Source: Coraliomargarita sp. (GTDB taxonomy: Bacteria; Verrucomicrobiota; Verrucomicrobiia; Opitutales; Coraliomargaritaceae). Taken from it: 64,000 nt of DNA. The notes beneath the pieces are model-generated. The model had not been told where the DNA came from, did not search any database, and saw only the letters and a program-made list of their open reading frames with translations. Position 1 is the first letter of the stretch. Each line of letters opens with the position of its first letter. Location of the stretch: the NCBI GenBank assembly GCA_965216325.1, contig OZ244160.1, positions 384,001-448,000 on the forward strand, written 5' to 3'. Of this stretch, positions 4,565-58,500 are shown in pieces. Position numbers and translations under genes: made by a program.

Positions 4565-4855
4565 ATGCAAAGATGACGATACACTGCCGAGTTTAAAAAC
4601 GAGGCCGTAAAGATGCTATTAATCGAGGGGCTCTCCGTGAAGGAGGTCTCTGAACAACTCGGGGTTCCGAAGGGGATGCTGTATGCCTGGAAGGCGAAGC
4701 ATCTCGACGATCTGGAAGCACAGACTCCAGAAGGAGCTCAAAGTCCGAAGGCCTTGGCCGCAGAGAACGATCAGCTGCGCAAGGAACTGGCCAAGCAGAA
4801 GCGGATGAATGAGATACTAAAAAAAACGGTCGGCTACTTCAGCAACCCCGAGTGA
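4565..4855 (+). pseudogene. IS3 transposase OrfA with nonsense codon at codon 4
   Basis: ATG CAA AGA TGA CGA TAC ACT GCC GAG TTT AAA reads MQR*RYTAEFKNEAVKML, in frame with track ORF 4613..4855, after a GAGGA RBS. Confidence 0.85.
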
Positions 4856-14910: not shown

Positions 14911-14916
14911 TTTTGA

Positions 14917-16217
14917 GGCTATTCGTAAAATCTTGTGAAGGAAGCGGTATAGATGTTCAAGACAGAGATGACATCACAGGAAGAACACTACGAGCAACTA
15001 TTGGGTTTGAGCGGAGCTTGGAAGGTATCCGCAGTGCAATTGGATTTAGGAGCTAAGCGTGTAGTGGTCGAGATTTACTATGACTTGTCACAGTCGCTGG
15101 AGTGTCCTGAGTGCGGAGGAGTCTGCCCTCACTATGACGACCGGGAGATGCGTGAATGGCGTCACCTGGACACAATGCAGTTTGAAACGATCCTGCGCTG
15201 TGAGGTGCCTCGCTGCAATTGCCCGGAACATGGCGTGAAGACCGTTCGTGTGCCTTGGGCAGGGAAAGGCTCAAGATTTACTCTGCTGTTCGAGTCCTTT
15301 GCCATAGACGTGCTTCAGGCCTGTTCGAGCGTGAAGGCCGCAGCTGAGTCAATGGGGCTAAACTGGCATCAGGTAAATGAGATCAGGCGTCGTGCAGTGG
15401 CCAGGGGGCTGGAGCGAAGACAGGCCGTGCCAGTCAATTACTTGGGCATTGATGAGAAGAGTTTTCGCAAGGGACACAACTACATCAGTCTGTTGACCGA
15501 TCTGGATCGCAGTCGGGTTCTGGATGTCGCCGAAGGTCGCGACGAGTCGGCATGCGACAAGCTCTTTGAGGGGCTAACCGAAGAGCAGCTAAAGGTAGTC
15601 AAAGCAGTCGCTATGGATATGTGGCGTGCCTATATCAAGGCCGCTGAATCCCACTTACCCGATGCGGACATCGTGCATGACCGCTTCCACATCAGCGCGC
15701 ACCTGAATCAGGCAATCGACAAGGTGCGTCGGCAAGAACACAAAGTCCTCTCCAGCCAGAACGACGACACGCTCAAGAAGAGTAAATATCTCTGGCTGAC
15801 GGGCTTTGAGAACCTCAGCGAAGAGATGCAGGTTCGCTTTGACCAGCTGCAGTCGCTCGGGTTGAAGGTGGGTCGTGCCTACGCGATCAAGGAAACCTTC
15901 GACCACTTTTGGGACTACACGTATCCGGCCTGCGCACGGAAGTTCTTTAACAAGTGGTATGGGTGGGCTCGCCGCAGCAAACTCGACCCCGTCAAACGCG
16001 TCGCCAAAATGATCAAAGAACACTTCGAGAACATCATCACCTATCTGAAACACCGAATCACCAATGCGGCAACAGAAGGCTTTAACGGTGTTATCCAAAG
16101 CATCAAAGCAAACGCCAGAGGCTTCAGGAGCTTTGAGAACTACAGAGTCGCCATCCTGTTCCAATGCGGAAAACTAGACCTCAACCCCTGATTCCTCACA
16201 GGAATTTACGAAGAACC
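14917..16217 (+). mobile_element. ISL3-family insertion sequence, intact
   Basis: IRL GGCTATTCGTAAAATCTTGTGAAGGAA; IRR revcomp GGTTCTTCGTAAATTCCTGTGAGGAA; 8-bp target duplication ATTTTTGA at 14909-14916 and 16218-16225. Confidence 0.96.
14953..16191 (+). CDS. ISL3-family transposase
   Basis: Zinc finger CPECG...CPEHG, LGIDEKSF, AMDMW, HDRFH, TNAATEGFN, ARGFRSF. Confidence 0.97.
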   Translation: MFKTEMTSQEEHYEQLLGLSGAWKVSAVQLDLGAKRVVVEIYYDLSQSLECPECGGVCPHYDDREMREWRHLDTMQFETILRCEVPRCNCPEHGVKTVRVPWAGKGSRFTLLFESFAIDVLQACSSVKAAAESMGLNWHQVNEIRRRAVARGLERRQAVPVNYLGIDEKSFRKGHNYISLLTDLDRSRVLDVAEGRDESACDKLFEGLTEEQLKVVKAVAMDMWRAYIKAAESHLPDADIVHDRFHISAHLNQAIDKVRRQEHKVLSSQNDDTLKKSKYLWLTGFENLSEEMQVRFDQLQSLGLKVGRAYAIKETFDHFWDYTYPACARKFFNKWYGWARRSKLDPVKRVAKMIKEHFENIITYLKHRITNAATEGFNGVIQSIKANARGFRSFENYRVAILFQCGKLDLNP

Positions 16218-16307
16218 ATTTTTGATTACCCTCAGGTGGTCTCATTCTTTAGACAGGCGACCCCTGCGTTGCCTTTTGTTTAATGGAAGGGGAGGCTGTC
16301 AGTTAAC

Positions 16308-18377
16308 TTAAAAGTCGCCCTTTGGGAATAGCGTGGTCCGCAGTAAGGTGGCGCCTGAGGGTTCGAGTGTGAGTTCTACTTGCGCACTCTCCACTTCGAG
16401 AGAGGTGGGGAAATCCGTGGCAATCGCACCTTTATTCAGTCCCCATGCTTGATCGCCTTCACCAAGCTCCCAGTTGGTCACTTTTCGGGCGGGCACGTTG
16501 ATTTGAATGGGGGATTGGCCGAAATCCCATGGATATCCCTGTCGCGGTGATTGGATGACTGTTATGTCGTCTGGGGTGAGCGTTGAGGAAAGCGCATAGG
16601 CCCAACCCACAGGATTCACCGGTAGGTATTGATAGGCCGGAAACTGAGGGCTTGCTTTACCCGCTGGAGAGTCCGTGGTGACGATCTGCTTGGCAGGTAC
16701 GGGATAGGAGAAAACCAGAGGGCCATAATTGATCGCCTGACCACGGCCAATGCGGTCGATGACGGGTGCTGCCTCAAACGCGATTGCCACTTGATCGCCG
16801 GCTTTGAAGACTCGCTTCAGTTCCGCAAAAAAGCTGCTTTCTTTGCCGCTAAGGATCGTTTTGCCGTTTAGGTTGATACTGTAGGATTCAGCCCAGCCAG
16901 GAACTCTGAGTGCCAGGGTGATCTCATTGGCTGGCGCATGATCGATTGCGATATTCACCGTGTGCTCAAAAGGATAATTGGTTTTCTGAGTCAGGGTCAG
17001 TTTGCCTTGTGGCATCGGTAGCTCGACCGTGCTTGGCAGGTAGAGTGCGACACTGGCACGATCGCCTTCGACCAGGCACATACGGTTGAGGAAGGTGGGG
17101 AACATACGGTGCACATTCCCGGTGCAGCACTCGGTATCATGGCCGGGGCGGTAACACATGCGACCTTGCCCCAACTTGCCCCAACCAGAGTCATTATTAT
17201 AGAAACTTGAGTCGTTTCTGCTGATGGGGACATTGGGGGTGCCGTAGTATTGGTGCGCCTTAAAATCGCTGGTGATGGAGCCAAATCCGGCGTTGTAGAG
17301 CACCTTCTCCATTTTATCCGCATACTTGGCATCTCCAGTCGCGAGCAAGGCATAGCCGGCACTCCAGTTGAAGTCGATGGCATTGCAGAGTTCGTGTGCT
17401 TGAATGGGGCTTTTGCCGCTTAATTCCTCAGTCGCGCTCGATAAGCCACATGCCAATTCATGTTGCTCGCTGAGCATCTCGAACGCGCGCTCGAATCCTT
17501 TGCGGTAGATCTCTTTGCCTGTAGCAGTGTAGAGAATCGCGGGAAGCTTTAGGAATTCGTGATAGGTAACCGCGTGTCCTTCCGGATCGACACCCTCCGC
17601 CATACCTTTGGCCGTCACCGTTGCGAGATCGGGGCCCGCTGTATGATAGAGGCGCTCCGCTGCATCGATATAAAACCTGTCCTGTGTAATTTCGAACAGC
17701 GTGCACAGGTGCTCAACATGGAGCAGCGCACGGGCATTGAAATCAAGCTTCTCCACCTTTCTGAAACTGGCGTTACGACTGTAGACCGTGCGATAGTGTT
17801 TTTCGATGGCAGCAAGGAGTTCTGAATCTTGAGTGTTTGCATATTCCTCAAACAAGATCCGCATAAAGACAACCATCGGCCACCAGTCATCCTCGATATT
17901 TTCGGCTCTCAGGGTTCCGTCCGCATCGGCATGATCCAGCACATAACGGATATTTTTTCGGACTCTTTCGAGCATTTCCGGCGACTCGTTTATATAGCCG
18001 CAGCGCAGTGCGCCATCGAGATAGTAACCGGTCTGTTCATAGGGCCACCAGCCGGATCCATATTGGCCGAACTCGCGATCTGCGACGTCCATGGGGCCGG
18101 TCCACATGCCGGTGTTGAACGGAAAGCCACTCTGCTCCGGGTGACCGGTGAGGCCGTCTTCCTGGCGCTGCATGAACTCCTTGGCCCAGCCATGCAGTCG
18201 AATCGAGCTGCTCTTCAGGTCATGACGTTTTGTGACCGTCTGTTCATTTTCTTTGTCTGATGTATTTGTCGTCGAACATGCCACAAAAAATGAAGCGCAT
18301 GTAGTGATTACAATTGAGGCTAGAGTTGCACTTGTTTTGAGGAAGCGACGGGGTGTGCGTGTGGGCGATGGATTCAT
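16308..18377 (-). CDS. GH127/GH146-like (DUF1680) glycoside hydrolase, probable lipoprotein
   Basis: WWPYEQTGY, GHAVT, HELCN, YADKMEKVLYNA, TECCTGNVHR, TNYPF, LRVPGWA, YGPLVF; FVAC lipobox-like motif. Confidence 0.85.
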   Translation of the reverse strand: MNPSPTRTPRRFLKTSATLASIVITTCASFFVACSTTNTSDKENEQTVTKRHDLKSSSIRLHGWAKEFMQRQEDGLTGHPEQSGFPFNTGMWTGPMDVADREFGQYGSGWWPYEQTGYYLDGALRCGYINESPEMLERVRKNIRYVLDHADADGTLRAENIEDDWWPMVVFMRILFEEYANTQDSELLAAIEKHYRTVYSRNASFRKVEKLDFNARALLHVEHLCTLFEITQDRFYIDAAERLYHTAGPDLATVTAKGMAEGVDPEGHAVTYHEFLKLPAILYTATGKEIYRKGFERAFEMLSEQHELACGLSSATEELSGKSPIQAHELCNAIDFNWSAGYALLATGDAKYADKMEKVLYNAGFGSITSDFKAHQYYGTPNVPISRNDSSFYNNDSGWGKLGQGRMCYRPGHDTECCTGNVHRMFPTFLNRMCLVEGDRASVALYLPSTVELPMPQGKLTLTQKTNYPFEHTVNIAIDHAPANEITLALRVPGWAESYSINLNGKTILSGKESSFFAELKRVFKAGDQVAIAFEAAPVIDRIGRGQAINYGPLVFSYPVPAKQIVTTDSPAGKASPQFPAYQYLPVNPVGWAYALSSTLTPDDITVIQSPRQGYPWDFGQSPIQINVPARKVTNWELGEGDQAWGLNKGAIATDFPTSLEVESAQVELTLEPSGATLLRTTLFPKGDF

Positions 18378-18386
18378 GTTTTTTCT

Positions 18387-18462
18387 AGACTACAGAAGCA
18401 TTCCCATCCTGTAAATACGGCCAATCGACCGTGTTTACAATATGACTTGTTGGGTGTAATCT
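18387..18462. promoter_or_regulatory. Operator palindrome 1 (18415-18434) inside a bidirectional sigma70-type promoter
   Basis: ATACGGCCAATCGACCGTGT; rightward TTTACA-17-TAATCT; leftward (minus strand) TTTACA-17-TAGTCT. Confidence 0.8.
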
Positions 18463-18674
18463 TCGTGGTAATTTTGGAATCCAAGTAATTAATTATGAAA
18501 AATACGACGCGCTCGAACGCGCGCTGCCACAACGACCTTTTCCGAGGTGCTTCCAACTCTAACGCGGCGATGCAGTCGATCCCCCGTCGGGCATTCATTA
18601 AAGCTGCTGCTGCCGCTACGGGCGCTTTCGTCCTGCCGCGCTTCAGTATCGGCCAACCCGGCCCGGCTGCCAAC
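18387..18674 (+). repeat. 288-bp promoter+RBS+Tat-leader cassette, copy 1
   Basis: Ungapped match to 21428-21715 with about 12 mismatches counted by eye. Confidence 0.95.
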
Positions 18675-19931
18675 AGCAAGATCAACCTAGCCTGGGTGGG
18701 TTTCAACAACATGGGCTTTTATGATCTGAATATCTGCGCCCACGGAAACAATGTGGTGGCCCTTTGCGACGTGGATCAAGAGGTTTTAGAGAAAGGAAAG
18801 AAGAAGTATCCCAATGCAAAGGTCTATACGGACTTCCGCAAGATGCTGACAGAGATGGACAACCAGATCGATGCCGTCGGTATAGCAACACCAGACCACA
18901 CCCATTTTGCCATCACGGCCATGGCCATGGGCATGGGCAAACACGTGTTCGTAGAAAAGCCCTTGGCTCACTCCGTGAGCGAGGTCAACGCCCTCAAAAA
19001 GCTGGCGACTGAAAAGCAGGTCGTCACTACAATGGGCAATCAGGGACACGCCTTCGAAGGGGCCTTTATGACCAAGGAGTGGTACGAAGCTGGTTTGATA
19101 GGCGAAGTACGCGAGGTGGTGTGTTGGACCAATCGTCCCGCAAATGGATATGGGTTCAGGATGGGGGACTGGAAGGGGTATCCCGAGGCAACCCCTGTGC
19201 CAAACCACCTCGACTGGGATCTTTGGAAAGGCCCTGTGACCAAAGATATCCCCTACAACGGTGCATTTCACCCCGGGTTCTGGAGGGGCTGGTGGGACTT
19301 CGGCTGCGGCGCCCTTGGGGATATCGGTTGCCATACCATCGACGCCCCCTACTGGGCATTGGGTTTGGATCAACCCGAAAGGATCGAGGTCGAGATGGAC
19401 GGAGAGCCCAACCCCTTCTTCACCCCAGCTGGTTCCATCGTAACCTACCACTTCCCGGCCCGGGGCAAGCAGCCTCCCGTCAAAGTCAAATGGTTCGAGG
19501 GCCCAAAACGACCACCTAAACCACCGGGATTCACCGGCAAAATGTCGCACGAAGGCGGTATGTTCATGCTGGGCTCAAAGGGCATGATCTTCCATAACGG
19601 CATGAGGCCACAAAGCGTTCGCTTATACCCCGATGATTTTTGGCAGGAGTATCGCACCAACGTTTCCAAGCAGGTTCCCAAAACCCTCAAGCGGATCCGA
19701 GGAGGCATCCACGGCCACTGGTTAGACTGTATCCGATACGGTGGCACCGCCCACTCCGACTTCAGCTATACCGCTCCCCTCACCGACATCATCATCAAGG
19801 GGACCTTGGCAATCCGAACCGGAAAAGGCATCAAAGTCGCTCCCGATGGAACCATCAGCGGTAATCCTCAAGCTGAGGCTCTGGTGGATGTTCCCGCCCG
19901 CAAAGGTTGGAGATTGGAAGACTTGGTTTAG
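18495..19931 (+). CDS. Gfo/Idh/MocA oxidoreductase, Tat-exported (paralogue 1)
   Basis: PRRAFIK Tat motif; ALCDVD, ATPDHTH, HVFVEKPL, MGNQGH, WRGWWDFGCGALGDIGCH. Confidence 0.95.
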   Translation: MKNTTRSNARCHNDLFRGASNSNAAMQSIPRRAFIKAAAAATGAFVLPRFSIGQPGPAANSKINLAWVGFNNMGFYDLNICAHGNNVVALCDVDQEVLEKGKKKYPNAKVYTDFRKMLTEMDNQIDAVGIATPDHTHFAITAMAMGMGKHVFVEKPLAHSVSEVNALKKLATEKQVVTTMGNQGHAFEGAFMTKEWYEAGLIGEVREVVCWTNRPANGYGFRMGDWKGYPEATPVPNHLDWDLWKGPVTKDIPYNGAFHPGFWRGWWDFGCGALGDIGCHTIDAPYWALGLDQPERIEVEMDGEPNPFFTPAGSIVTYHFPARGKQPPVKVKWFEGPKRPPKPPGFTGKMSHEGGMFMLGSKGMIFHNGMRPQSVRLYPDDFWQEYRTNVSKQVPKTLKRIRGGIHGHWLDCIRYGGTAHSDFSYTAPLTDIIIKGTLAIRTGKGIKVAPDGTISGNPQAEALVDVPARKGWRLEDLV

Positions 19932-19942
19932 GGGGAACGATC

Positions 19943-20671
19943 ATGAGAAACTGGCTTGTGGCGATGGTTGTGAGCGTGAGCATCATCATGCCGATGACTC
20001 TTACGGCGACTGAAAAAGACGAAGCTTGGGTCGATCTACTGGAGGATGGACTGAACGCATGGGGAGATTCACGGGGCTGGACCACGGCAGACGAGGTCGT
20101 GGTCAACCCAGACCATGAACAACAGCTGAAGGTGACCAAGGCCGGCAAATCCATAGCGGTGGTGGCAAAGAAAAGCCGAGCTGCCTACTTGCTGACGAAG
20201 GAGATGCATGGAGACCTTGAAGCAAAGATCGAGTTTATGGTACCGAAAGGTTCGAACTCTGGAATCTACTTCATGGGCCGATACGAGGTTCAGATTTTTG
20301 ACAGCTTTGGCAAAAAGAATGTCAATCACAGTGACTGCGGCGGAATCTATCAACGTTGGGGCAAGCACCGCGATAACGGTCATCCACCGAGAGTCAACGC
20401 ATCTAGCGCCCCTGGAACTTGGCAAAGCTATGAAGTGATCTTCCGCGCACCCCGCTTTGATACCAAGGGCAAGAAGACCGAGAACGCAAAGTTCATCAAG
20501 GTGGTGCACAACGGCAAAGTGATCCACGAAAACGTAGAGGTCACTGGACCTACTCGGTCGGCCATGAAAGAGATGGAACCAGAAGAAGCAAAAGGCCCCA
20601 TCCGAATCCAGGGCGATCACGGCCCCGTCGCTTTTCGCCTATTCAAGATTCGTCATATCCAATCAGACTGA
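19943..20671 (+). CDS. DUF1080 (3-keto-disaccharide hydrolase-like) protein
   Basis: Signal peptide from ATG 19943; NSGIYFMGRYEVQIFDS, PGTWQSYEVIFRAPRF, GPIRIQGDHGPVAFR. Confidence 0.92.
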   Translation: MRNWLVAMVVSVSIIMPMTLTATEKDEAWVDLLEDGLNAWGDSRGWTTADEVVVNPDHEQQLKVTKAGKSIAVVAKKSRAAYLLTKEMHGDLEAKIEFMVPKGSNSGIYFMGRYEVQIFDSFGKKNVNHSDCGGIYQRWGKHRDNGHPPRVNASSAPGTWQSYEVIFRAPRFDTKGKKTENAKFIKVVHNGKVIHENVEVTGPTRSAMKEMEPEEAKGPIRIQGDHGPVAFRLFKIRHIQSD

Positions 20672-21064
20672 AGGCTTTTTCATCTCTCACAGTATCTCTA
20701 TCGTCTTAAAATCACTATTTTCTATGACATAGTTGGTACCTTGTCGGTGATTTTGATGTAAGAACTATTAAACCCGAGCAAATCGGTTTCAATCCAGAAG
20801 CTCAGGGCATGGATCAGTAGGTCATCGGGGGCCAGGTGCACCTCGAAAGGATCGATTGCCACGAGATACAATCCATCTGGAGGAGTATGATATCACCACC
20901 GAAACGACTCACCCCTTGGCACCTAATGTCTATATTGAAAAGGGAGTGTCCTTTTCGCTGCTAGACAGGGCAGAGGGCAAAAAGTCGTCTTTAAGCTCTT
21001 TCGAGTGAATACGCCAGGAAGATAGGTTGATTAATTTGGTACAACTTCTCTTATAAGCAAAATC

Positions 21065-21347
21065 CTATCCTTTTATACCCTTCTCCCGCGAAACCACTTT
21101 GCTTCTAGAGCCCGTGGTTCTGGGATTCGATTGGGTCGAGGGGCGGATTGAAGGCCGAGTCGGCTTAATGGCTGAGGGCCTTTCCATTTTCTTTTTAGGA
21201 GTGATATTGCTTGTGGTGGCTGAAGATATGCTAGTTGGTTCTCGAGGCTCATCATCCTTAACCTCAAGGACAAAAGAATGCCCGCAAGCCTTGCATGTCA
21301 CACTCTGTCCAAGCCATGACGATTTGATTTGGTGGATTTTTTGGCAC
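21065..21347 (-). pseudogene. Zinc-ribbon protein remnant
   Basis: Minus frame reads CQKIHQIKSSWLGQSVTCKACGHSF followed by a Pro/Ser/Thr-rich linker; the 5' end is replaced by a sulfatase-derived patch. Confidence 0.5.
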
Positions 21348-21427
21348 TGGGGAAGCTCACATGTACAAGACTGCGATATCCTGATCTTGCAGCGCTTTAA
21401 ACTATGGGTGTCCTTGTTTCCTTTCCC

Positions 21428-21503
21428 AGACTACAGAAGCATTCCCATCCTGTAAACACGGCCAATCGACCGTGTTTACAATATGACTTTTGGGGTGTAG
21501 TCT
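21428..21503. promoter_or_regulatory. Operator palindrome 2 (21456-21475) inside a bidirectional promoter
   Basis: TGTAAACACGGCCAATCGACCGTGTTTACA; TTTACA-17-TAGTCT on both strands. Confidence 0.8.
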
Positions 21504-21715
21504 TCGTGGTAATTTTGGAAGCCAAGTAATTAATTATGAAAAGTACGACACACTCGAACGCGCGCTGCCACAACGACCTTTTCCGAGGTGCTTCCCACTC
21601 TAACACGGCGATGCAGTCGATCCCCCGTCGGGCATTCATTAAAGCTGCTGCTGCCGCTACGGGTGCCTTCGTCCTGCCGCGCTTCAGTATCGGCCAACCC
21701 GGCCCGGCTGCCAAC
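21428..21715 (+). repeat. 288-bp promoter+RBS+Tat-leader cassette, copy 2
   Basis: Matches 18387-18674 at offset 3041. Confidence 0.95.
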
Positions 21716-22972
21716 GGTAAGTTGAATCTCGCATGGATTGGTTTAGGGGGGCAAGGTTCGCGTGATATCCGCGCTTGCGCAAATGGTAATAATGTGGTGG
21801 CCTTAGTGGATGTGGACCCCAGAGCCTTAGAAAAAGCAAAGGCTGCCTTTCCGAAGGCCAAATTCTACCAGGATTTCCGTGTCATGTTTGAGGAAATGGG
21901 AGATTCCATAGATGCTGTCGGCGTCGGGACCCCGGATCACACTCACTTCGCTGCCACCTATATGGCCATGAGTATGGGGATGCATGTCTTTGTGCAGAAG
22001 CCGCTGGTTCATACGATTCAGCAGGCCCGCATTTTGCAGGAGCTGGCAATTGATAAAAAGCTGGTGACCCAGATGGGTAATCAGGGGCATGCCTCGGGGG
22101 GAGCCCGCCTGGTCAAAGAATGGTATGAGGCTGGCCTGATCGGCGAGGTTCGAGAGGTCGTGGCATGGACCATTCGGCCTAGTCATGGTTATGGATTCGG
22201 CGGGAAGGTTCAAACTGCTTTTCCGGCGGCTGAACCCATTCCCGAAGGAATGGACTGGAATCTCTGGTTGGGGCCATGTGACAAGGAGATCGCATTCAAT
22301 CGCTCGTTCCACCCAAGGGGATGGCGAAAGTGGTGGGATTTCGGCTCCGGTGGACTCGGTGATATTGGTTGCCACACCATCGATACGGCCTACTGGGCGC
22401 TCGGTCTCGGTGCACCTGATAGCGTTGACGTGGAGATGCATGACGAGGTGAATCCAATCTTCACGCCCTATGGGTCTGTTGTCCATTTCAACTTCCCCGC
22501 ACGCGGCAAGCAACCACCCGTCACGGTAAAGTGGTATGAGGGGCCGACCCGCCCGCCGCTTCCTGAAGGCTATGACCAGGGATTGGAAGGAGAGGGTGGA
22601 TTGATGATTGTTGGTGAAAAGGGCGGAATTTGTCATCACGGGATGCGTCCAGATAGTCCAAGGCTCTATCCGCAGGAAAAATGGGACGCATACAAGGCGA
22701 ACCCTGAGCTCCGCGTCGCCAAGACACTCCCACGAACAAAAGGGATTTATCGAGATTGGATCGATGGCATCAAGAACGGTAAGGAAACATGCTCAGATTT
22801 CAGCTACGCAGCACCGTTGACCGAGACGATTCTACTCGGTACCCTTGCTATTAGAACCGGGCAAAAACTCACGTGGAATGCGAGTGATATGACAATCCGC
22901 GACAACGAAGCTGCTTCGAAGTTGATCAACCCTGAAGCACGTAAAGGTTGGCGCATTGAAGACCTCGCCTAG
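21536..22972 (+). CDS. Gfo/Idh/MocA oxidoreductase, Tat-exported (paralogue 2)
   Basis: PRRAFIK; IGLGGQG, GTPDHTH, HVFVQKPL, QMGNQGH, WWDFGSGGLGDIGCH. Confidence 0.95.
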   Translation: MKSTTHSNARCHNDLFRGASHSNTAMQSIPRRAFIKAAAAATGAFVLPRFSIGQPGPAANGKLNLAWIGLGGQGSRDIRACANGNNVVALVDVDPRALEKAKAAFPKAKFYQDFRVMFEEMGDSIDAVGVGTPDHTHFAATYMAMSMGMHVFVQKPLVHTIQQARILQELAIDKKLVTQMGNQGHASGGARLVKEWYEAGLIGEVREVVAWTIRPSHGYGFGGKVQTAFPAAEPIPEGMDWNLWLGPCDKEIAFNRSFHPRGWRKWWDFGSGGLGDIGCHTIDTAYWALGLGAPDSVDVEMHDEVNPIFTPYGSVVHFNFPARGKQPPVTVKWYEGPTRPPLPEGYDQGLEGEGGLMIVGEKGGICHHGMRPDSPRLYPQEKWDAYKANPELRVAKTLPRTKGIYRDWIDGIKNGKETCSDFSYAAPLTETILLGTLAIRTGQKLTWNASDMTIRDNEAASKLINPEARKGWRIEDLA

Positions 22973-22994
22973 AGTTCGGGGAGGCCGCGATCGG

Positions 22995-24515
22995 ATGAAA
23001 ACTTCTCATCACTGCGTCATCTCGACCTGGCTTGCATCCACTATTTGGGTCTGTGGTGTTAGCTTCGCTGAAACGAACATGGAGGGCGTGCCTAACATCG
23101 CAACAGTGCCTTCTCCCAATATCATTGTTATCGTAGCTGATGATATGGGGTGGGGGGACACTGGCTATAACGGCAATCAAATACAGCAGACCCCAGCTCT
23201 GGACCAAATGGCCCAGGAAGGCATCCGGTTCGACCGCTTTTACGCCGCGAGCACAGTCTGTGCTCCGACCAGGGCCTCGATTATGACTGGGCAGAACGGT
23301 GCGCGCTTGGGGATTTGGCACTGGGGAAGCTCACATGTACAAGACCGCGATATCCTGATCTCACGTACGCTAAAAGAAAAAGGCTATATCACGGGGCATT
23401 TCGGAAAATGGCATCTGGGCCTGCTCGATGAAGCGGGCACACACGACTATACCAGTGGGCCGCGCACCCATGAAAAAGACTTCAGCCCGCCATGGCGGAA
23501 CGGGTTTGACATCTGTTTTAGCACCGAGAACGTCACCCCGACGTGGGATCCTATGATACTCCCGGATCAGGGGAAGTGGGGGGATCCCAGACGCGAGGCG
23601 ACTGGGCTTTGGGGTAATAACTACTGGAATGAGAAAGGTGAGATGATTGATCATGACGATAATCTCTCAGGCGACGACAGTCGAGTGATCATGGATCGCG
23701 TGATCCCCTTCGTGGAAGCACAATCCAAAACACCTAGCCCTTTCTTTGCCTATATCTGCTTTCATACGCCTCACACTCCAACCGTCAGTGGCGGCAAATA
23801 TCTAGAAATGTATGAAGGCCATGAAGGGCGCCACCATTATGGTGCCATTACTGCGATGGACGAGCAAATCGGACGTTTGCGCCAGACCTTACATGAACTA
23901 GGTGTCGAGAAGAATACCCTGATCTGGTTTGTTTCAGATAATGGAGCCGCTAAAAACAATAGCAAACACTTTGGTGAATACGGCGGTTTCGGATCAAATG
24001 GACCATACCGTGGATGGAAATGTTCGTTATACGAAGGAGGAATACGAGTGCCGTCAATCTTAGTGTATCCGAAGCGTTTCAAGCAACCTTCTGTGGTAAA
24101 AATGCCGTGTGTAACGTCGGATATGTTCCCTACAATAGCGACAATTCTCGGCGATTCGCAAACGCCACGCAGTCAACCCCAGGACGGCATAGATATACTG
24201 CCCGCAATAGATGGGACAATGAATTACCGGAAAGAACCGATCGGGTTTGCCTATGAAAAGAAAGCTGTCTGGATGACCCAGCAGTATAAACTTGTTGTCG
24301 CTCCCGGTAATAATACCGACCTCACTGAGCTGTACGATCTGAAGAACGACCCCTATGAAACAACTGACCTTGCCGGTAAATATCCTAAAAAAGTATCGCA
24401 GATGAAAAATGAACTCACCAAGTGGATACAATCCTGCAACCGCAGCAGCGGCACCCGCTACAAACACCTGTCATTGCCAAAAGATCCTCAGATAGGGGGA
24501 GACAATAACTTATGA
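22995..24515 (+). CDS. S1 (formylglycine-dependent) sulfatase
   Basis: PNIIVIVADDMG, CAPTRASIMTG, GKWHLG, VSDNGA, YEGGIRVP; ATG 22995 preferred because it follows a GGAGG RBS. Confidence 0.95.
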   Translation: MKTSHHCVISTWLASTIWVCGVSFAETNMEGVPNIATVPSPNIIVIVADDMGWGDTGYNGNQIQQTPALDQMAQEGIRFDRFYAASTVCAPTRASIMTGQNGARLGIWHWGSSHVQDRDILISRTLKEKGYITGHFGKWHLGLLDEAGTHDYTSGPRTHEKDFSPPWRNGFDICFSTENVTPTWDPMILPDQGKWGDPRREATGLWGNNYWNEKGEMIDHDDNLSGDDSRVIMDRVIPFVEAQSKTPSPFFAYICFHTPHTPTVSGGKYLEMYEGHEGRHHYGAITAMDEQIGRLRQTLHELGVEKNTLIWFVSDNGAAKNNSKHFGEYGGFGSNGPYRGWKCSLYEGGIRVPSILVYPKRFKQPSVVKMPCVTSDMFPTIATILGDSQTPRSQPQDGIDILPAIDGTMNYRKEPIGFAYEKKAVWMTQQYKLVVAPGNNTDLTELYDLKNDPYETTDLAGKYPKKVSQMKNELTKWIQSCNRSSGTRYKHLSLPKDPQIGGDNNL

Positions 24516-27500
24516 AAAACATATTTTATCAGGTGTGCCTCGCCACGCTTCTCTTGCTAGTCGTCACCGCTACGGCGGCTGACAATAAAATGGAGGAAGC
24601 TTCAAAAGAGAATCAGTTTCAGGTAGTAAGCTCAAATCTTTTACAAGAATACGTGAAGCGTTTTAACGCAGATGATGAGGAGCTCTACTCGAACATCAAA
24701 AACAAGGATGCCTTTGAATACCTTAACAACAATATTCCGCTGTTTGAATGCCCGGATGAGGATTTTCAGCGCAACTGGTATTTCCGCTGGTGGACCTTTC
24801 GTAAGCATATAAAGTCTACACCGGATGGTTATGTTGTCACCGAATTTCTACCCAAAGTACCTTGGTCGGGAAAATATAACACAATCAGTTGTCCGGCGGG
24901 GCATCAATACTATGAAGGTCGCTGGCTTCATGACACCAAAATCCTGGATGACTACTCATCATTCTGGTTGCGCAAGGGCGGAGAGCCGCGACGCTACAGT
25001 TTCTGGATCGCCGACTCATTTTATAAGCGTCACCTTGTGACTCCGAACAAGGACTTTATTATCGGTTTTCTGGATGATTTAATTAAAAATTATCAGGCAT
25101 GGGAAAAATCTCATAAAAAAGGCAACGTGCTATTTGCTCAATCCGCAGACAGAGATGGCATGGAAATGGCAATTGGCGGCGACGGGTTCAGACCGACGAT
25201 CAACTCCTATATGTACGGTGATGCTCTAGCTATTGCTGAAATTGCCAAGCTTGCTGGCAAAACTGATATCTCACAAGAATACAAGGCTAAAGCTTTAGAG
25301 ATTAAGCATGAAGTTCAGGCGAAACTCTGGGATAATGACGCAAAGTTCTTTAAAGTTCTGCGACCTCATAAAAATCAATTAGAAAAAGTTCGTGAGCTTC
25401 ACGGCTACACTCCGTGGTACTTCAATCTGCCGGACAAAAACAAGGGCTACGAAACGGCTTGGGAGCAACTGATGGATGCCAAGGGATTTTACGCACCCTA
25501 TGGTCCAACCAGCGCAGAGCAACGTCATCCTGGATTTCAAATATCCTACAGGGGTCATGAATGTCAGTGGAATGGACCGTCATGGCCATTTGCAACATCT
25601 CAAACTTTAACAGCTCTCGCCAACGTGCTGAATCATTACCCGCAGAATGTAGTATCTAAAGAGGACTACTTCGAAACCTTGAAGATCTACACCAAAAGCC
25701 ACCAATTTAAGCGAGAAGACGGAGAGGTGGTTTCGTGGATTGACGAGAACCTGAATCCATACACAGGTGATTGGATCTCCAGAACAAGGTTAAAGCAATG
25801 GAACAACGGAACCTGGGATAAAGGCAAAGGTGGCAAGGAACGCGGCAAGGATTATAATCACTCTACTTATAATGACTTGATCATCACTGGATTGGTGGGG
25901 CTGCGCCCCCGTGCTGACAATGTGATAGAAGTAAATCCCTTGCTGCCAGAGAATACCTGGGACTATTTTTGTTTGGATAATGTCCGCTATCACGACCGAA
26001 TCCTCACGATCATCTGGGATAAGACCGGAGAGAAGTATGGCAAAGGAAAAGGACTTTCCGTATATGCAAACGGTGAAAAGATCGCGGCAGCCCCAACCCT
26101 GACAAAGCTTACGGGAACGCTTGACGGTATCGCGCCTATTCCCTACGCGCAAAGAGCTCCTATTGCCACGGATGACTCCACTCATTTGAAAGTGCTGGCG
26201 GTAAGAGCTTCGCATACAAACCCAAGTGACACGACAAGCGGTCTGATCCAAAACAGTATCCCCTATGGCTCAGGTGACGAGAGCATCAAACGATGGACCT
26301 CATGGCCGCAGACAGGCAAAAGCCAGTGGGTAGAGTTGGATCTCGGCGACAAAGCATCGGTTAAATCGCTCGGGGTATTCTGGTTTCAGGACAATGCTGG
26401 TGTCAAAGTTCCTGCGTCGTGGCATGTCGAAGCTTCTGATGATCAGGCCGGCCCATGGGTTAAAGTGCCCTCGACTGGTGGTGACTTCGGCGTCAAGCTG
26501 GATGTCTATAATACCGTTCAATTCGGAGGAACACTAAAGTATCGCTATGTGCGCATCGTCATGAAACCCACCAAGGGTAAAGCACTCGGGATTCTATCAA
26601 TAGATGTTACGGGAACGCCTGACGGTACTGCGGTTATTCCATACTTGCAAAAAAAAACTGTTGCCGCGGATCGACCTAACATCGTCATCATTCTCGCTGA
26701 TGATGCGGGATTCTCGGATCTCGGCTGTTTCGGTGGAGAGATAGAGACCCCCAACCTTGACTCCCTGGCGGCCAACGGACTTCGCTTCACCGAGTTTTAT
26801 AACTCGGCACGCTGTTGGCCGACACGAGCTAACCTCATGACCGGACGTTATGACAATTTTCTCAATAAAAACAGTATCACCATACCTCAGGTTCTTAAGA
26901 CAGCAGGATATAATACGGCCATGGTTGGAAAATGGCACCTCGGGGGGCATACATTTGATCCAAACGGTCCGAACGCTCCGATTAATCGGGGGTTCGATGA
27001 CTTTTACGGCACCCTGCATGGAGCTGGCTCCTACTATGATCCAATGACTCTGACTCGCAATAGAAAGAGCATTGAGCCCGATAATGAGAGTTTCTACTAC
27101 ACCGACAAGATCGGCGAGGAGGCTGTTCGCCAGATAAAAGCTCTGGCCAAGGCAGAGAAACCCTTCTTCCAATACGTTGCCTTCACTGCACCACATTGGC
27201 CCATTCACGCTCCGGAAAAAACCATTCAGAAGTATATCAAACGATACGAGGGTGGCTGGGAGAAACTGCGCCAAGACAGGTATGCGCGCATGCTCAAGAT
27301 GGGGATCATCGATGAAAAGCGCTTCCCTCTGCCGCCGATGGAGCCGAACGTCAAACCATGGAATGAGGTGGATCATAAACCCTGGCGTATCCGCAACATG
27401 GCAGTCTACGCCGCAATGGTTGACCATATGGACCAGGCTATCGGCCGAATCATTGATGCTCTGAAAAGCTCCGGACAGTTTGACAACACACTCATCTTCT

Positions 27501-28636
27501 ATGCTTCCGACAACGGTGCCTGTCCTGAAGTACTTCACGGAAAAGGCTGGGGTACTGCCGACAACATCCTGGCTAAGGCCAAACAACAGGGCAAAAAAGT
27601 TGCCGTGGGTAATGTTTACAGTGTCCCGATGGGGGGACCGTTGACCTACGGCAGTGTGGGGCCGAATTGGGCCTGCGCCCAGAACACTCCGATGCGCCGT
27701 TACAAGAAGAACGTCCACAATGGCGGCGCATGCACACCCGCAATCATGCACTGGCCCGTCGGTCTAAAGACGGAACCTGGCTCCATCTCCCGGCAAAGGG
27801 GGCATGTGGTCGACTTGATGGCTACCTGCCTTGAGCTTGCAGACGCCAAGTATCCCGAAACGCTTAACGGAATTCCCCTCAAGCCGCACGCAAGCCTCTC
27901 TCTGGTTCCTGCCATCGTCGGCAAGGACCTGCCGCGGGATCATGCTTATTTCTTTAATCACGAGGGCACGCACGCCGTTGTAAAAGGCAATTACAAGATT
28001 GTTCGCGAACCCAATAGCGCCTGGGAGCTCTATGACCTGTCTGAAAACCGAACCGAGACCAAGAATATTGCGCAGAAACACCCTGAAGTTGTCAGTGAAC
28101 TCTCCAAGCTATGGGAACGCTGGTCCAAGGGGAAAAAAACTCCCGTTGCCGCGGCTAACCGGGACGTGCAAAAAGCTCCTGCTGCCGCGGATAAATCCAC
28201 TCATTTGAAAGTGGTGGCGGTAAGAGCTTCGCATACAAACACAAGTGACACGACAAGCGGTCTGATCCAAAACAGTACCCCCTATGGATCAGGTGACGAG
28301 AGCATCAAGCGATGGACCTCATGGCCGCAGACAGGCAAAAGCCAGTGGGTAGAGTTGGATCTCGGCGACAAAGCATCGGTTAAATCGCTCGGGGTATTCT
28401 GGTTTCAGGACAATGCTGGTGTCAAAGTTCCTGCGTCGTGGCATGTCGAAGCTTCTGATGATCAGGCCGGCCCATGGGTTAAAGTGCCCTCCTCTGATGG
28501 TAAGTTCGGCGTCAAGCTGGATGTCTATAATACCGTTCAGTTCGGAGGAACACTAAAGTATCGCTATGTGCGCATCGTTATGACACCAACTGAGGGTAAA
28601 GCACTCGGAATTCTATCAATAAAAATAAAGGAGTAG
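24512..28636 (+). CDS. Fusion: MGH1/GH63-like glycoside hydrolase + discoidin-like domain + S1 sulfatase + duplicated discoidin-like domain
   Basis: N-terminal YFRWW, DRDGME, RPTINSY, CQWNGPSWPF, DYNHSTY; central RPNIVIILADD, CWPTRANLMTG, GKWHLG; two copies of VRASHT...QWVELDLG...LGILSI. Confidence 0.88.
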   Translation: MKNIFYQVCLATLLLLVVTATAADNKMEEASKENQFQVVSSNLLQEYVKRFNADDEELYSNIKNKDAFEYLNNNIPLFECPDEDFQRNWYFRWWTFRKHIKSTPDGYVVTEFLPKVPWSGKYNTISCPAGHQYYEGRWLHDTKILDDYSSFWLRKGGEPRRYSFWIADSFYKRHLVTPNKDFIIGFLDDLIKNYQAWEKSHKKGNVLFAQSADRDGMEMAIGGDGFRPTINSYMYGDALAIAEIAKLAGKTDISQEYKAKALEIKHEVQAKLWDNDAKFFKVLRPHKNQLEKVRELHGYTPWYFNLPDKNKGYETAWEQLMDAKGFYAPYGPTSAEQRHPGFQISYRGHECQWNGPSWPFATSQTLTALANVLNHYPQNVVSKEDYFETLKIYTKSHQFKREDGEVVSWIDENLNPYTGDWISRTRLKQWNNGTWDKGKGGKERGKDYNHSTYNDLIITGLVGLRPRADNVIEVNPLLPENTWDYFCLDNVRYHDRILTIIWDKTGEKYGKGKGLSVYANGEKIAAAPTLTKLTGTLDGIAPIPYAQRAPIATDDSTHLKVLAVRASHTNPSDTTSGLIQNSIPYGSGDESIKRWTSWPQTGKSQWVELDLGDKASVKSLGVFWFQDNAGVKVPASWHVEASDDQAGPWVKVPSTGGDFGVKLDVYNTVQFGGTLKYRYVRIVMKPTKGKALGILSIDVTGTPDGTAVIPYLQKKTVAADRPNIVIILADDAGFSDLGCFGGEIETPNLDSLAANGLRFTEFYNSARCWPTRANLMTGRYDNFLNKNSITIPQVLKTAGYNTAMVGKWHLGGHTFDPNGPNAPINRGFDDFYGTLHGAGSYYDPMTLTRNRKSIEPDNESFYYTDKIGEEAVRQIKALAKAEKPFFQYVAFTAPHWPIHAPEKTIQKYIKRYEGGWEKLRQDRYARMLKMGIIDEKRFPLPPMEPNVKPWNEVDHKPWRIRNMAVYAAMVDHMDQAIGRIIDALKSSGQFDNTLIFYASDNGACPEVLHGKGWGTADNILAKAKQQGKKVAVGNVYSVPMGGPLTYGSVGPNWACAQNTPMRRYKKNVHNGGACTPAIMHWPVGLKTEPGSISRQRGHVVDLMATCLELADAKYPETLNGIPLKPHASLSLVPAIVGKDLPRDHAYFFNHEGTHAVVKGNYKIVREPNSAWELYDLSENRTETKNIAQKHPEVVSELSKLWERWSKGKKTPVAAANRDVQKAPAAADKSTHLKVVAVRASHTNTSDTTSGLIQNSTPYGSGDESIKRWTSWPQTGKSQWVELDLGDKASVKSLGVFWFQDNAGVKVPASWHVEASDDQAGPWVKVPSSDGKFGVKLDVYNTVQFGGTLKYRYVRIVMTPTEGKALGILSIKIKE
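26177..26602 (+). repeat. 426-bp intragenic domain repeat, copy 1
   Basis: Near-identical to 28196-28621 at offset 2019. Confidence 0.95.
28196..28621 (+). repeat. 426-bp intragenic domain repeat, copy 2
   Basis: Near-identical to 26177-26602. Confidence 0.95.
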
Positions 28637-29772: not shown

Positions 29773-29897
29773 TCCCAGAGAAATTAACAAGAGCAGAATA
29801 AGACCCCAGTCAAATCCGGCTTAACTCTTGAGGCAAAGCCGTTACAATTAGCTTCAGCCCACCTCGCCCCAAAAATGAAATATCGCTCATAAATAAT

Positions 29898-40130: not shown

Positions 40131-40250
40131 GCAGCGAGTAGTCAAGCATTCGAAAGTTGAGGCAACCTAACCGAGATTAATAATTTAGTGATTAAAAGTA
40201 CGAGGCAATCGAACCTGCGCCGACAATGCGGTCTTTTTAGAGCTGCCCTG

Positions 40251-40976
40251 ATGCTTAAGAAATACGGGATTCTGTCCGCCTGTTTCTGCCTGCTACAAAC
40301 CGGTCAAGCGATGGAGATGCCCCCCAAAGTCTTGACCCCAGATGGCAAAGCACCGAGCGATGCGACCGTGGTCTTTTCCGGCGGCAGCAAGGAGGCTCTC
40401 GTCAATGGAGCTGGGGAGCGCCTGGGCTGGCCGGTTCAGGACGATGCACTGATCGTCAATGGTGAGATCGGTGCCTATACCAAACTCCATTTTTCGGATG
40501 CGCAAATCCATGTCGAGTTTGCTTGTCCGAACGACGGCAAGCAAGGTGAAAGTGCCGGTAATAGTGGACTGTACATTCACGGGCTCTACGAGCTTCAAAT
40601 TTACAACTCCTACGACCAGAAGATCAAACCCTCGGCGATGCTTGGTGCGATCTACGGACAGTACATCCCGCCAGTTAATGTGGCTCGGCCCGCCGAACAG
40701 TGGCAGGTGTATGATATCATTTTTCACGCCCCGCGGCGCAACGAAGCGGGGCAGGTGAGTGAGCCGGGACGTTTGACGGCCTTTCTCAATGGTGTGCTGC
40801 TGTACGATAACGTGGAAATCAAAGAGCCCACAGTATATGGCCCACTCCATCACCAACCGACGCCATATTCCAAGGAATTATATGACAAGATCAAGAAGAC
40901 CGGGTGTGGGCCGCTATTCTTTCAGGATCACCATAGCCCGGTTCGCTTTCGGAATATTTGGATCCGAACTTTGTAA
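40251..40976 (+). CDS. DUF1080 protein
   Basis: Signal peptide from ATG 40251 (MLKKYGILSAC...); APSDATVVF, GNSGLYIHGLYELQIYNS, WQVYDIIFHAPR, FQDHHSPVRFRNIWIR. Confidence 0.9.
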   Translation: MLKKYGILSACFCLLQTGQAMEMPPKVLTPDGKAPSDATVVFSGGSKEALVNGAGERLGWPVQDDALIVNGEIGAYTKLHFSDAQIHVEFACPNDGKQGESAGNSGLYIHGLYELQIYNSYDQKIKPSAMLGAIYGQYIPPVNVARPAEQWQVYDIIFHAPRRNEAGQVSEPGRLTAFLNGVLLYDNVEIKEPTVYGPLHHQPTPYSKELYDKIKKTGCGPLFFQDHHSPVRFRNIWIRTL

Positions 40977-57020: not shown

Positions 57021-57078
57021 AAATCAGACACTCCAACCATTCGAAAACCGAATCCAACCGAACCAGGCTCAATTTAGT

Positions 57079-58500
57079 ATGAAAAATACGAAACAACCTA
57101 ACCCGCGCCGTCAAAACGGTCTTTTCAGAGGTGCTTCCATACAACGTAGAAACTTCCTTAAAACCGCAGCAGCCGCCAGTGCGGGTGCCTTTGTATTGCC
57201 ACGCTTCTCTATTGGCCAGCCTGGCCCGTCGGCGAATAGCAAACTGAACATCGCGCATATCGGTGCCGGTAACATCGCTAATATGGCGTATGGCTGTACT
57301 CGTGTCGAGAATGTCGTGGCGCTGTGCGATATTGATAGTCGTATGTTTCCCGATTGGGCTGCCTCCAATAACATACCTACGTTTGCCGACTACCGTGAGA
57401 TGCTCGACAAGCTCGGCAAAGAGATTGACGGCGTCTGCATCAACACTCCCGATCATACTCACTTTAATGCGACACTGGCTTGCATGGAACGCGGTATCCA
57501 CGTCTGCACGCAAAAGCCGTTGACGCATAACGTCTGGCAAGCGCGCACGCTGCGTAAGGCTAAGGATAAATATAAGGTGGTCACCAATATGGCCAATCAA
57601 GGCCACACCTTCGATGGCATTCGCAAGATGCGCGAGATGTATGAAGCAGATTGCTTCGGGCAGGTTCGAGAAGTGCACCTCGGTTTTAACGGACCCGATT
57701 GGAACTCTAGATTCTTCAAGAAACAGAAGTCTATGCCTTTAAGCGGCGAACCAGTTCCAGCTGAGGTGAACTGGGATCTATGGCTGGGCCCAGCTCAAGA
57801 ACATCCTTATAATCGCGATTTGCATCCCCTGAGCTGGCGTGGCTTTTACGATTTTGGCACCGGGCAATTTGGTGACTGGTTTTGTCATATCGGAGATGGC
57901 GCTGTCTGGGTGCTTGATTTGTATGAGCCCACGGTGATCGAATGCGTTGAGCGTGGGCCTGCGATGGAGGGAATGATTCCGGATTACAGTATCGTGCGCT
58001 TTGATTTCCCTGCGCGTGGCAACAAGGCTGCGTGCTCAATGACTTGGTATGATGGTACGAACAACGGTGGCACGCCGATCAAATCACCGGATGATTGGGG
58101 ATGGGGCAGGGTGCCGAATAAGGGCTCTTTCTGGTATGCTGACAAAGGCAATGCCTTCCTGGATCAATACTCCAACAATCCTCGATTTGCTGTTAAAGAG
58201 CAGATGGTTGCCTTTAAAGAGAGCGGCGGTGTCGCAGAGAAATATGCCCGCGTCAAAGGCGGCCCACACAGAGAGTGGATGCGCGCGATTAAGGGAGATA
58301 TTTCTGAATGTGGATCGAACTTTGATTACGCCGCTCCGATGACGGAGGTTGCTTTGCTGGGTGTGCTCGCGCAGCGCTTCGGCGGCCGGATTGAGTGGGA
58401 TAGCAAAAACATGCGTATCACCAATCGCCCCGAGCTGAATGTATTTATTAAGGAGCCTGTTCGCGCAGGCTGGGAGGCCGGTCAAGATCTTTGGTCTTAA
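57079..58500 (+). CDS. Gfo/Idh/MocA oxidoreductase, Tat-exported (paralogue 4)
   Basis: QRRNFLK; IGAGN, NTPDHTH, TQKPLTH, MANQGH, GTGQFGDWFCH. Confidence 0.95.
   Translation: MKNTKQPNPRRQNGLFRGASIQRRNFLKTAAAASAGAFVLPRFSIGQPGPSANSKLNIAHIGAGNIANMAYGCTRVENVVALCDIDSRMFPDWAASNNIPTFADYREMLDKLGKEIDGVCINTPDHTHFNATLACMERGIHVCTQKPLTHNVWQARTLRKAKDKYKVVTNMANQGHTFDGIRKMREMYEADCFGQVREVHLGFNGPDWNSRFFKKQKSMPLSGEPVPAEVNWDLWLGPAQEHPYNRDLHPLSWRGFYDFGTGQFGDWFCHIGDGAVWVLDLYEPTVIECVERGPAMEGMIPDYSIVRFDFPARGNKAACSMTWYDGTNNGGTPIKSPDDWGWGRVPNKGSFWYADKGNAFLDQYSNNPRFAVKEQMVAFKESGGVAEKYARVKGGPHREWMRAIKGDISECGSNFDYAAPMTEVALLGVLAQRFGGRIEWDSKNMRITNRPELNVFIKEPVRAGWEAGQDLWS

Follow-up and report, generated by a model that had tools for sequence, protein, structure and literature searches.

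A dehydrogenase gene of a Coraliomargarita glycan-degradation island that probably carries a copy of its neighbor's promoter and leader

We analyzed a stretch of 64,000 nucleotides (nt) from the genome of Coraliomargarita sp. (phylum Verrucomicrobiota; GenBank assembly GCA_965216325.1, contig OZ244160.1, positions 384,001 to 448,000 of the forward strand). The whole stretch is referred to as the window, and positions are counted from its first letter unless stated to be those of the genome. The window contains two neighboring genes, A and B, both coding for oxidoreductases of the Gfo/Idh/MocA family. We propose, with a probability of about 0.8, that gene A is chimeric, with a front end copied recently from gene B and a core that is an old and distinct paralog. 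The main elements are listed below (coordinates, strand, description; aa, amino acids; UTR, untranslated region).

18381..18674, plus: shared block, copy 1; promoter/operator part (18381-~18483), end of the 5′ UTR and codons 1-60 of gene A
21422..21715, plus: shared block, copy 2; the same promoter/operator part, end of the 5′ UTR and codons 1-60 of gene B
18410..18439, no strand: 30-nt palindrome of copy 1, with the operator core ATACGG-N8-CCGTGT at 18415-18434
18495..19931, plus: gene A; 478-aa Gfo/Idh/MocA oxidoreductase, B-type leader (codons 1-60) and A-type core (codon 61 on)
18668..18674, plus: 3′ junction; 7-nt microhomology, Ala-Asn codons common to both leader types
21536..22972, plus: gene B; 478-aa Gfo/Idh/MocA oxidoreductase, leader native to its clade, promoter part not

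RESULTS

Extent of the shared block and its breakpoint

A repeat search detected a direct repeat in two copies (18381-18680 and 21422-21721, 95% identity, spacing of 3041 nt), which blastn aligned without gaps (284/300 identities). According to the original prediction, made from the sequence alone, 288 bp were shared with about 12 mismatches; between 18387-18674 and 21428-21715 exactly 12 of 288 bases differ. The remaining four of the 16 mismatches over 300 nt are found at 18384 and 18386 and in codon 61 (18675 and 18677). As the codon 61 mismatches follow the pattern of the core, the true block is 18381-18674 with 14 mismatches in 294 nt. A maximum-chi-square scan of the ungapped alignment (18381-19580) put the break after 18674, leaving 14/294 mismatches to the left and 361/906 to the right. 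The chi-square value at the break is 127, a value reached by none of 1000 column permutations (best 17.5), so that the breakpoint has the statistical support expected of a chimeric gene. The join is situated at the Ala-Asn codons, immediately ahead of the first Rossmann strand. The Rossmann domain (PF01408) begins at residue 64 in both proteins; thus, identity does stop abruptly at this domain, as had been noted.

The block includes the whole 117-nt intergenic region with the palindrome, and codons 1-60 ending in ...GQPGPAAN. The 300 nt upstream of it are identical at 63 positions (~21%), which is the random level. Downstream, identity is about 58-60% (545/906 in the 3′ flank) and synonymous sites are saturated. 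In the entire genome, a single contig of 3,064,510 bases, blastn revealed only two full copies of the block; the next best match (68-83 nt, 75-79%) is the leader of a further paralog, C (window ~57071-57236). No terminal repeats besides the internal operator palindrome were found on the block by the repeat search, an Rfam scan of 18000-22000 produced no matches at E<=1, and folding of the RNA for 18465-18580 gave no structure signal (z = 0.15).

Ancestry of the two cores

The cores of A and B are old, distinct paralogs separated by a long split. Whole proteins are identical at 295 of 478 positions and cores at 238 of 417 (57%). Where identical residues have four-fold degenerate codons, A and B agree in the third base at 21/24 sites of the leader versus 22/85 of the core (Fisher p 6e-8). 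The earlier statement that the cores are clearly diverged is thereby put in numbers.

Database searches retrieved a protein 89% identical to A (P0121), another 90% identical to B (P0001), and many proteins of several phyla that are 62-75% identical to B. We then used 418 core columns of 40 proteins to construct a tree (quick IQ-TREE, LG+G4), rooted on the C-type subfamily. In this tree A is sister to P0121 (390/416 identical, 94%) and B is sister to P0001 (376/416 identical, 90%), both with the support of 100 in the Shimodaira–Hasegawa-like approximate likelihood ratio test (SH-aLRT). Forcing A and B into one clade costs 484 log-likelihood units and is rejected by the approximately unbiased (AU) test (p 9e-78). 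No A- or B-type ortholog was found in 40 searched relatives, including three same-genus genomes, 76-99% complete; the best non-self match to A was 52% identical. Public genome contigs searched with protein B gave a best match of 74% and no close locus.

Leader types and direction of the transfer

Two types of leader can be distinguished among these proteins, a long one ending in ...LPRFSIGQPGPxAN and a short, family-typical one ending in ...ILPxxVFGAN. The A-type 90% cluster has nine members: one comes from the window itself, three are cut before the junction and the other five, all environmental, have the short leader. The B-type cluster has 20 members; of the 15 listed, the 14 that do not come from the window all have the long leader, and four of those listed are called with an N-terminal extension. 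At the protein level, the leader of A is identical to that of B at 56/60 positions and to that of P0121 at 14/62. A scan of metagenomes with the leader pattern found only two loci, L110 and L111, both B-type genes on public metagenome contigs, and public genome contigs scanned for the leader peptide pattern gave no matches. Leader identities at the nucleotide level are as follows.

A and B: 173/180 (96.1%)
A and L110: 163/174 (93.7%)
B and L110: 163/174
A and L111: 151/180 (83.9%)
B and L111: 154/180 (85.6%)

Core identities of B are 189/198 to L110 and 1153/1257 (91.7%) to L111. The leader DNA of A nests inside B-type leaders and is nearest to that of B from the same genome; at residue 10, A and B have Arg, P0001 and P0151 have His. 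Since the five A-type relatives have the short leader, the 14 B-type proteins the long one, and the leader of A is nested within the B-type, core A received a copy of the B leader and not the reverse. Leader and core trees, whose congruence would be at odds with the original prediction, turned out to be incongruent: the core groups A with P0121, the leader puts A nearest to B. The block and the remainder of the gene thus have significantly different phylogenies, as is required of a chimeric gene. The genome has no second A-type gene, and a tblastn search of it detected no short-leader remnant, its best matches being to the A and B leaders.

On the 40-protein tree, a minimum of four changes of leader type is needed. 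Three of the changes fall inside the A/B subfamily (A, B+P0001 and P0004+P0118), and the long leader is the norm in the C-type subfamily of relatives. The leader of P0004 is identical to a C-type leader at 26/41 positions; its core is identical to that protein at 147/428 and to B at 311/417. A search with leader residues 1-60 found four protein clusters, all four of the Gfo/Idh/MocA family. The front end had been called portable, and the term holds within this enzyme family but not beyond it, given these four clusters and only two full block copies in the genome.

Operator and composite origin of the block

Neighboring features needed to follow the structure of the locus are listed first (ORF, open reading frame).

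16308..18377, minus: GH127-like glycoside hydrolase gene, divergent from gene A (Pfam PF07944 and PF20736)
19907..20671, plus: 3-keto-disaccharide hydrolase (DUF1080) gene, partner of core A (Pfam PF06439)
20672..21339, no strand: spacer between the A cassette and block copy 2, without recognizable gene
21340..21387, plus: 48-nt fragment of the downstream sulfatase gene (corresponds to 23314-23361, 47/48 identical)
22956..24515, plus: sulfatase gene downstream of B (Pfam PF00884), synteny kept in L111 (3304-4833)

The start codon of the GH127-like gene ends at 18377, 4 nt from the 5′ edge of the block. The spacer has no other match in the genome, and an ORF spanning its 3′ end (21099-21455) has no Pfam match. 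The 48-nt sulfatase fragment sits 34 nt before block copy 2 and is likely the footprint of a rearrangement.

The palindrome of copy 1 overlaps hexamers resembling -35 and -10 elements, and in copy 2 the operator is a perfect palindrome (21451-21480). A sigma-70 scan was not decisive, with no convincing call in copy 1 and one 9/12 match inside the copy 2 palindrome. The operator core ACACGG-N8-CCGTGT occurs in the genome at 21 sites with at most one mismatch, and its right arm usually runs into a TTGAC/TTTACA hexamer. The sites include window positions 18415, 21456, 40083, 49222, 51612, 53886, 56790 and 61454, and further genome sites up to 496399. As many as 19 of the 21 are clustered at 402-497 kb of the genome, upstream of secreted glycan-degradation genes, which fits the regulon assumed in the original prediction. 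An AraC-type gene is present at 3584-4471.

The alignment of L110 and L111 with gene B starts only ~10 nt before the ATG. The sequence preceding that point in the two contigs is unrelated and has its own operator ~200 nt upstream of the ATG. Therefore, the promoter part of the window (18381-~18483, ~103 nt) is not native to B-type genes. The block operator with ~20 nt of its 5′ flank and the spacer variant CCAATCGA recur at 473.6 kb of the genome, upstream of a second copy of the GH127-like gene (GH127′). In the genome this spacer variant is found only in A, in B and at the GH127′ site; public genome contigs scanned for the operator variant gave no matches. The two GH127-like copies (window 16301-18351 and genome 471408-473457) are 92.5% identical over 2056 nt, and in GH127′ the start codon is ~165 nt farther from the shared operator variant. 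The block is composite, and these comparisons suggest a promoter part from the GH127 side and a leader from the B side.

In L111 there is no A gene upstream of the B-type gene, and the sulfatase is kept downstream. The position of A beside B is therefore specific to the lineage of the window. Where the window has the A cassette, L111 has a small transposase-like ORF (1252-1608, minus strand) upstream of the B-type gene; its motif presumably belongs to the repetitive extragenic palindrome (REP)-associated/IS200 type. Compared with L111 (3300-7363), the window (22952-24300 and 29803-32108) also has ~5.5 kb extra between the sulfatase gene and the next shared gene, made up of a hydrolase-sulfatase fusion gene and an aldose epimerase gene.

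Chimeric and unswapped forms in metagenomes

We aligned contigs of four public metagenome runs (X1, X3, X4 and X10) on 17800-23200 at 80% identity or higher. No evidence of absence was drawn from unmatched stretches (e.g. 20877-21419 in most runs, or the GH127-like gene in X1). Two runs from different studies bridge the block to the A core: a 500-nt contig of X1 matches 18381-18841 and a 355-nt contig of X3 matches 18385-18739. Contigs of the other two match gene A only from 18668 on. That of X4 (1617 nt) matches 18668-20125 with 55 differences (55/1458, 3.8%) and has 159 unlike nt before the match; that of X10 (612 nt) has 92 unlike nt before it. Thus, both the chimeric and the unswapped form exist in nature and are no artefact of assembly. 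The X4 contig and an X10 contig (19160-20125) span both the A core and the DUF1080 gene, indicating that the core and its hydrolase partner travel together. Two joints in X1 (18848>21922 and 19061>22121) were considered as deletions and rejected: other letters lie between their sides and the flanks are short. They were read as other paralogs.

Proposed origin and alternative explanations

The chimera could have arisen in two steps. A promoter from the GH127 side would have been joined once to a B-type leader, ~11 nt before the ATG. The resulting promoter-leader unit would then have been duplicated, with a leaderless segment of A core and hydrolase gene coming between the copies. One possible route begins with a tandem duplication that extended from the block into the sulfatase gene, the first core being replaced afterwards; another is a single replicative event with several template switches, of which the 48-nt sulfatase fragment would be a footprint. 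Recombination or gene conversion had been suggested originally. Recombination agrees with the incongruent trees and the breakpoint, whereas canonical gene conversion, flanked by homology, does not agree with a locus that has no homology on the 5′ side (63/300), an 3′ flank of 545/906 identity and a 7-nt microhomology at the 3′ join.

Adjacent, co-oriented genes of equal length (478 aa) might be taken for the product of an old tandem duplication, with concerted evolution by gene conversion continuing in the first 300 bp; a high-identity block within diverged paralogs is indeed the classical signature of conversion. We consider this very unlikely, because the core tree does not unite A and B as sisters, proteins of other phyla are as similar to B (62-68%) as A is, A-type relatives have another leader, and L111 has no A gene beside its B-type gene. 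Moreover, the divergence of the block (4.8%) is no smaller than that between the A core and its unswapped counterpart in X4, so ongoing homogenization is not needed. The view that simple tandem duplication would not give such a boundary is thus upheld by the rejected A+B clade and the unrelated 5′ flank. The opposite polarity, with the long leader original to core A and the short one of its relatives a later replacement, draws on the fact that the five informative A-type relatives are closely related to each other and may count as one event. It appears still less probable, since 28 of the 33 A/B subfamily proteins in the tree have the short leader, among them the nearest outgroups of A (P0122 and P0126), and since the leader DNA of A is sister to that of B from its own genome within the B-type, Arg10 being present in A and B only.

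The block might also be a self-contained mobile cassette that lands before genes by its own transposition or site-specific machinery. Its 5′ edge at 18381 is seen in three contexts (the GH127-like gene, the spacer before B and the X1 contig), similar blocks of operator, promoter and signal peptide are common to two other gene pairs of the island, and an ISL3 transposase gene lies 2 kb away. Nevertheless, there is little to recommend this idea: the genome has two full copies only, terminal repeats other than the operator palindrome and Rfam matches are missing, the 3′ join is in register with the paralog alignment and at a microhomology, the leader is confined to Gfo/Idh/MocA proteins, and the block is composite. 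Accordingly, the properties of an insertion sequence (IS), a miniature inverted-repeat transposable element (MITE) or an integron cassette were not found. Purifying selection alone might be expected to preserve an operator, a promoter and a Tat (twin-arginine translocation) motif, all of which are present in the block. The chance that it explains the identity is negligible given the contrast at four-fold sites. Besides, in B-type orthologs the leader diverges faster than the core (85.6% versus 91.7% between B and L111), so that selection cannot account for the identity of the A and B leaders. As for a collapsed or mis-joined repeat, 300 bp at 95% identity can confuse short-read assemblers, and an assembly artefact was also named as a doubt in the original prediction. 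We dismiss it as next to impossible: the genome is one 3.06 Mb contig, the copies differ at 16 sites, four runs labeled with the name of the organism hold 94% of sampled words, and both junctions are bridged by independent contigs, that of A in X1 and X3, that of B in L110, L111 and an X10 contig.

Several points weigh against the proposed chimeric origin of gene A. The metagenome (Logan) contigs are short and could themselves be chimeric at repeats; yet each form is supported by two runs that come from different studies. One X10 contig extends from the start of the GH127-like gene into the block, up to 18438, with 88% identity. The unswapped A core is present in X10 as well, so that the promoter part may have preceded core A even before the swap. 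The model leaves unexplained why the block begins 4 nt from the GH127 start codon and why this edge is seen again in the X1 contig, which has no GH127 cover and whose first 39 letters are unlike. The unswapped A form is known from proteins and from contig matches that begin at 18668; with the swap, core A may have gained the operator or may have had it before. The core tree was computed without a mixture model. Finally, the order of events and the template switching are read from the anatomy of the locus.

Predicted functions and gene neighborhood

Both proteins belong to the Gfo/Idh/MocA family by their Pfam scores (A, 71.3 bits for PF01408, with the cut-off of 24, and 57.7 for PF19051; B, 61.8 and 61 bits). 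The best named NCBIfam for A, B and C is NF058561, the BT_2158 glycoside 3-dehydrogenase family. As the scores (327.9 for A, 346.2 for B, 315.8 for P0121 and 305.1 for C) are far under the equivalog cut-off of 750 bits, A, B and C are relatives of this family, not equivalogs. For the Tat assignment we required a motif of the S/T-R-R-x-F-L-K type and a hydrophobic stretch, and considered TIGR01409 (cut-off 16.7 bits). In the leaders of A and B the twin-arginine motif I-P-R-R-A-F-I-K is followed by an Ala-rich stretch; TIGR01409 gives 15.5 bits for both, just under the cut-off, and 19.1 for C. A and B are predicted to be periplasmic Tat-type sugar dehydrogenases related to glycoside 3-dehydrogenases. 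Their transcription would start from identical operator-promoters, and the same signal would serve the export of both.

The genes lie in what their annotation identifies as an island for the degradation of fucose- and sulfate-rich glycans, under one putative palindromic operator. The window contains two GH29 and one GH95 fucosidase-type genes, several sulfatase genes, and GH2, GH31 and GH127-like genes, as well as two more dehydrogenase genes that have DUF1080 genes adjacent or nearby. Two other genes share a feature with A and B.

57079..58500, plus: paralog C; 38-40% aa identity to A and B, same leader type and same ~20-codon N-terminal extension
40188..40976, plus: DUF1080 gene; frame opens with the same ~20-codon extension, followed by a signal of the general secretory (Sec) type
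18495-18569, 21536-21610, 57079-57138 and 40188-40250: the ~20-codon extension, before a Tat or Sec signal

The pre-signal extension (M-K-N/S-T ... N-x-R ... L-F-R-G/A-A) is found on exactly these four genes of the genome, and the C-type orthologs in three relatives lack it. Its translation is suggested by synonymous changes and by an indel of 6 nt in relatives that keeps the frame. In public gene calls, A and B begin at Met26 and have 453 aa; the true start codons are probably 25 codons upstream.

Other observations concern mobile and rearranged DNA nearby. The ISL3-family transposase gene (14916-16228) has 99.8%-identical copies at 137-138 and 1281-1282 kb of the genome. An rve-type integrase gene (4852-5769) adjoins a truncated sulfatase ORF (5903-6715). 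In a 1374-aa ORF (24512-28633), an MGH1-like glycoside hydrolase is fused to a sulfatase and to two F5/8-type C domains; the ORF has a 458-nt internal repeat (26145-26602 and 28164-28621, 94.8%).

DISCUSSION

Front-end exchange in the island

The present case illustrates, with polarity and breakpoint, that a single recombination step may be enough to rewire a bacterial enzyme gene. Gene A apparently ended up with the operator-promoter and the export signal of its neighbor. The two direct repeats of 294 nt could in turn delete the A cassette or allow its re-insertion.

A broader possibility, which we offer tentatively and regard as rather unlikely, is that front ends made of operator, promoter and signal peptide serve as exchangeable adaptors. 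Recombination would repeatedly put enzyme bodies behind them, and the pair of A core and 3-keto-hydrolase would be an excisable and re-insertable cassette. Three near-identical front-end pairs in the island (A/B, two GH29 α-L-fucosidases and two small secreted proteins) are compatible with this idea, as are at least three leader-type changes within the A/B subfamily and the ~20-codon extension on four different genes. The GH29 pair shares an 853-nt block (95.4%; 48576-49428 and 50966-51806, or 432576-433428 and 434966-435806 of the genome) that takes in the operator as well as the 3′ end of the gene upstream. The first 28 codons are identical, and the proteins are 32% identical. The small secreted proteins share a block of ~320 nt (93.5%; genome 461667-461989 and 463211-463524) with operator, promoter and the first 17 codons, their bodies being unrelated except for the last ~70 residues. 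If the adaptor reading were true, a single step could bring an enzyme into a regulon and provide it with an export route.

In marine Verrucomicrobiota, islands for glycan degradation contain many secreted enzymes that are paralogs. Should front-end exchange be frequent in such islands, trees built from whole ORFs would mislead, signal peptides and promoters would say little about the ancestry of cores, and regulon membership could change faster than enzyme sequence.

Comparison with known systems

Chimeric-gene formation by recombination of this sort is already known, and the case of genes A and B is a well-documented one. Partial gene conversion between bacterial paralogs such as tufA and tufB leaves a near-identical, sharp-edged tract in otherwise diverged genes and, in its canonical form, needs homology on both sides. 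The tract in A and B is likewise near-identical and sharp-edged, but its 5′ flank is unrelated, its 3′ flank is 58% identical and the tract itself is composite.

In Borrelia, a conserved upstream region with a leader peptide is reportedly found on different mature proteins, which Marconi in 1996 and Akins in 1999 are said to have attributed to recombination. The arrangement, one upstream region and leader on different mature proteins, resembles that of A and B. The Borrelia genes differ in having Sec/lipoprotein leaders, many copies on prophage plasmids, surface antigens as products and unrelated mature parts, whereas A and B have a putative Tat-type leader, a putative repressor-type operator and homologous paralog cores, and are two chromosomal catabolic enzymes. 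The name of the Borrelia family, upstream-homology-box/Elp lipoprotein genes, and its subdivision are as given in excerpts of PMC12242104.

For the tandem lpl paralogs of Staphylococcus aureus, excerpts of the study by Tsuru and Kobayashi (2008, PMC2568036) describe a travelling unit that is not the ORF and incongruent 5′ and 3′ phylogenies; crossovers take place in a long conserved region at the center, and the 3′ end of the upstream ORF is part of the unit. A and B agree with these excerpts in that the moving unit is not the ORF and the two phylogenies conflict. Unlike in lpl, nothing upstream of the intergenic region is shared, as the block starts beyond the GH127 start codon instead of reaching into the upstream ORF, and the join is a 7-nt microhomology. 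The GH29 pair, with its block reaching into the upstream gene, fits the lpl pattern better than A and B do.

On the enzymatic side, the closest parallel is the BT2158/BT2157 pair of Bacteroides thetaiotaomicron. Excerpts of Liu et al. (2021, PMC8121099) describe the degradation of disaccharides via 3-keto intermediates in the periplasm by a Gfo-like dehydrogenase, which has a putative Tat signal, and a DUF1080 3-keto-disaccharide hydrolase. The dehydrogenase is proposed to be exported by Tat in a folded form with the cofactor bound. Gene A and its DUF1080 partner likewise combine a dehydrogenase with a 3-keto-disaccharide hydrolase. They differ from the Bacteroides pair in the NF058561 scores (305-346 bits for A, B and C against the cut-off of 750) and in a fucosidase/sulfatase context in place of a disaccharide operon. 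A full-text search of a limited literature collection returned no described swap of this kind for Tat-leader enzymes or for these dehydrogenases. What sets the A/B case apart from the known systems is the combination of a putative Tat-type leader with a putative repressor-type operator, the setting among enzymes of a verrucomicrobial glycan island, the join at a microhomology and the composite nature of the block.

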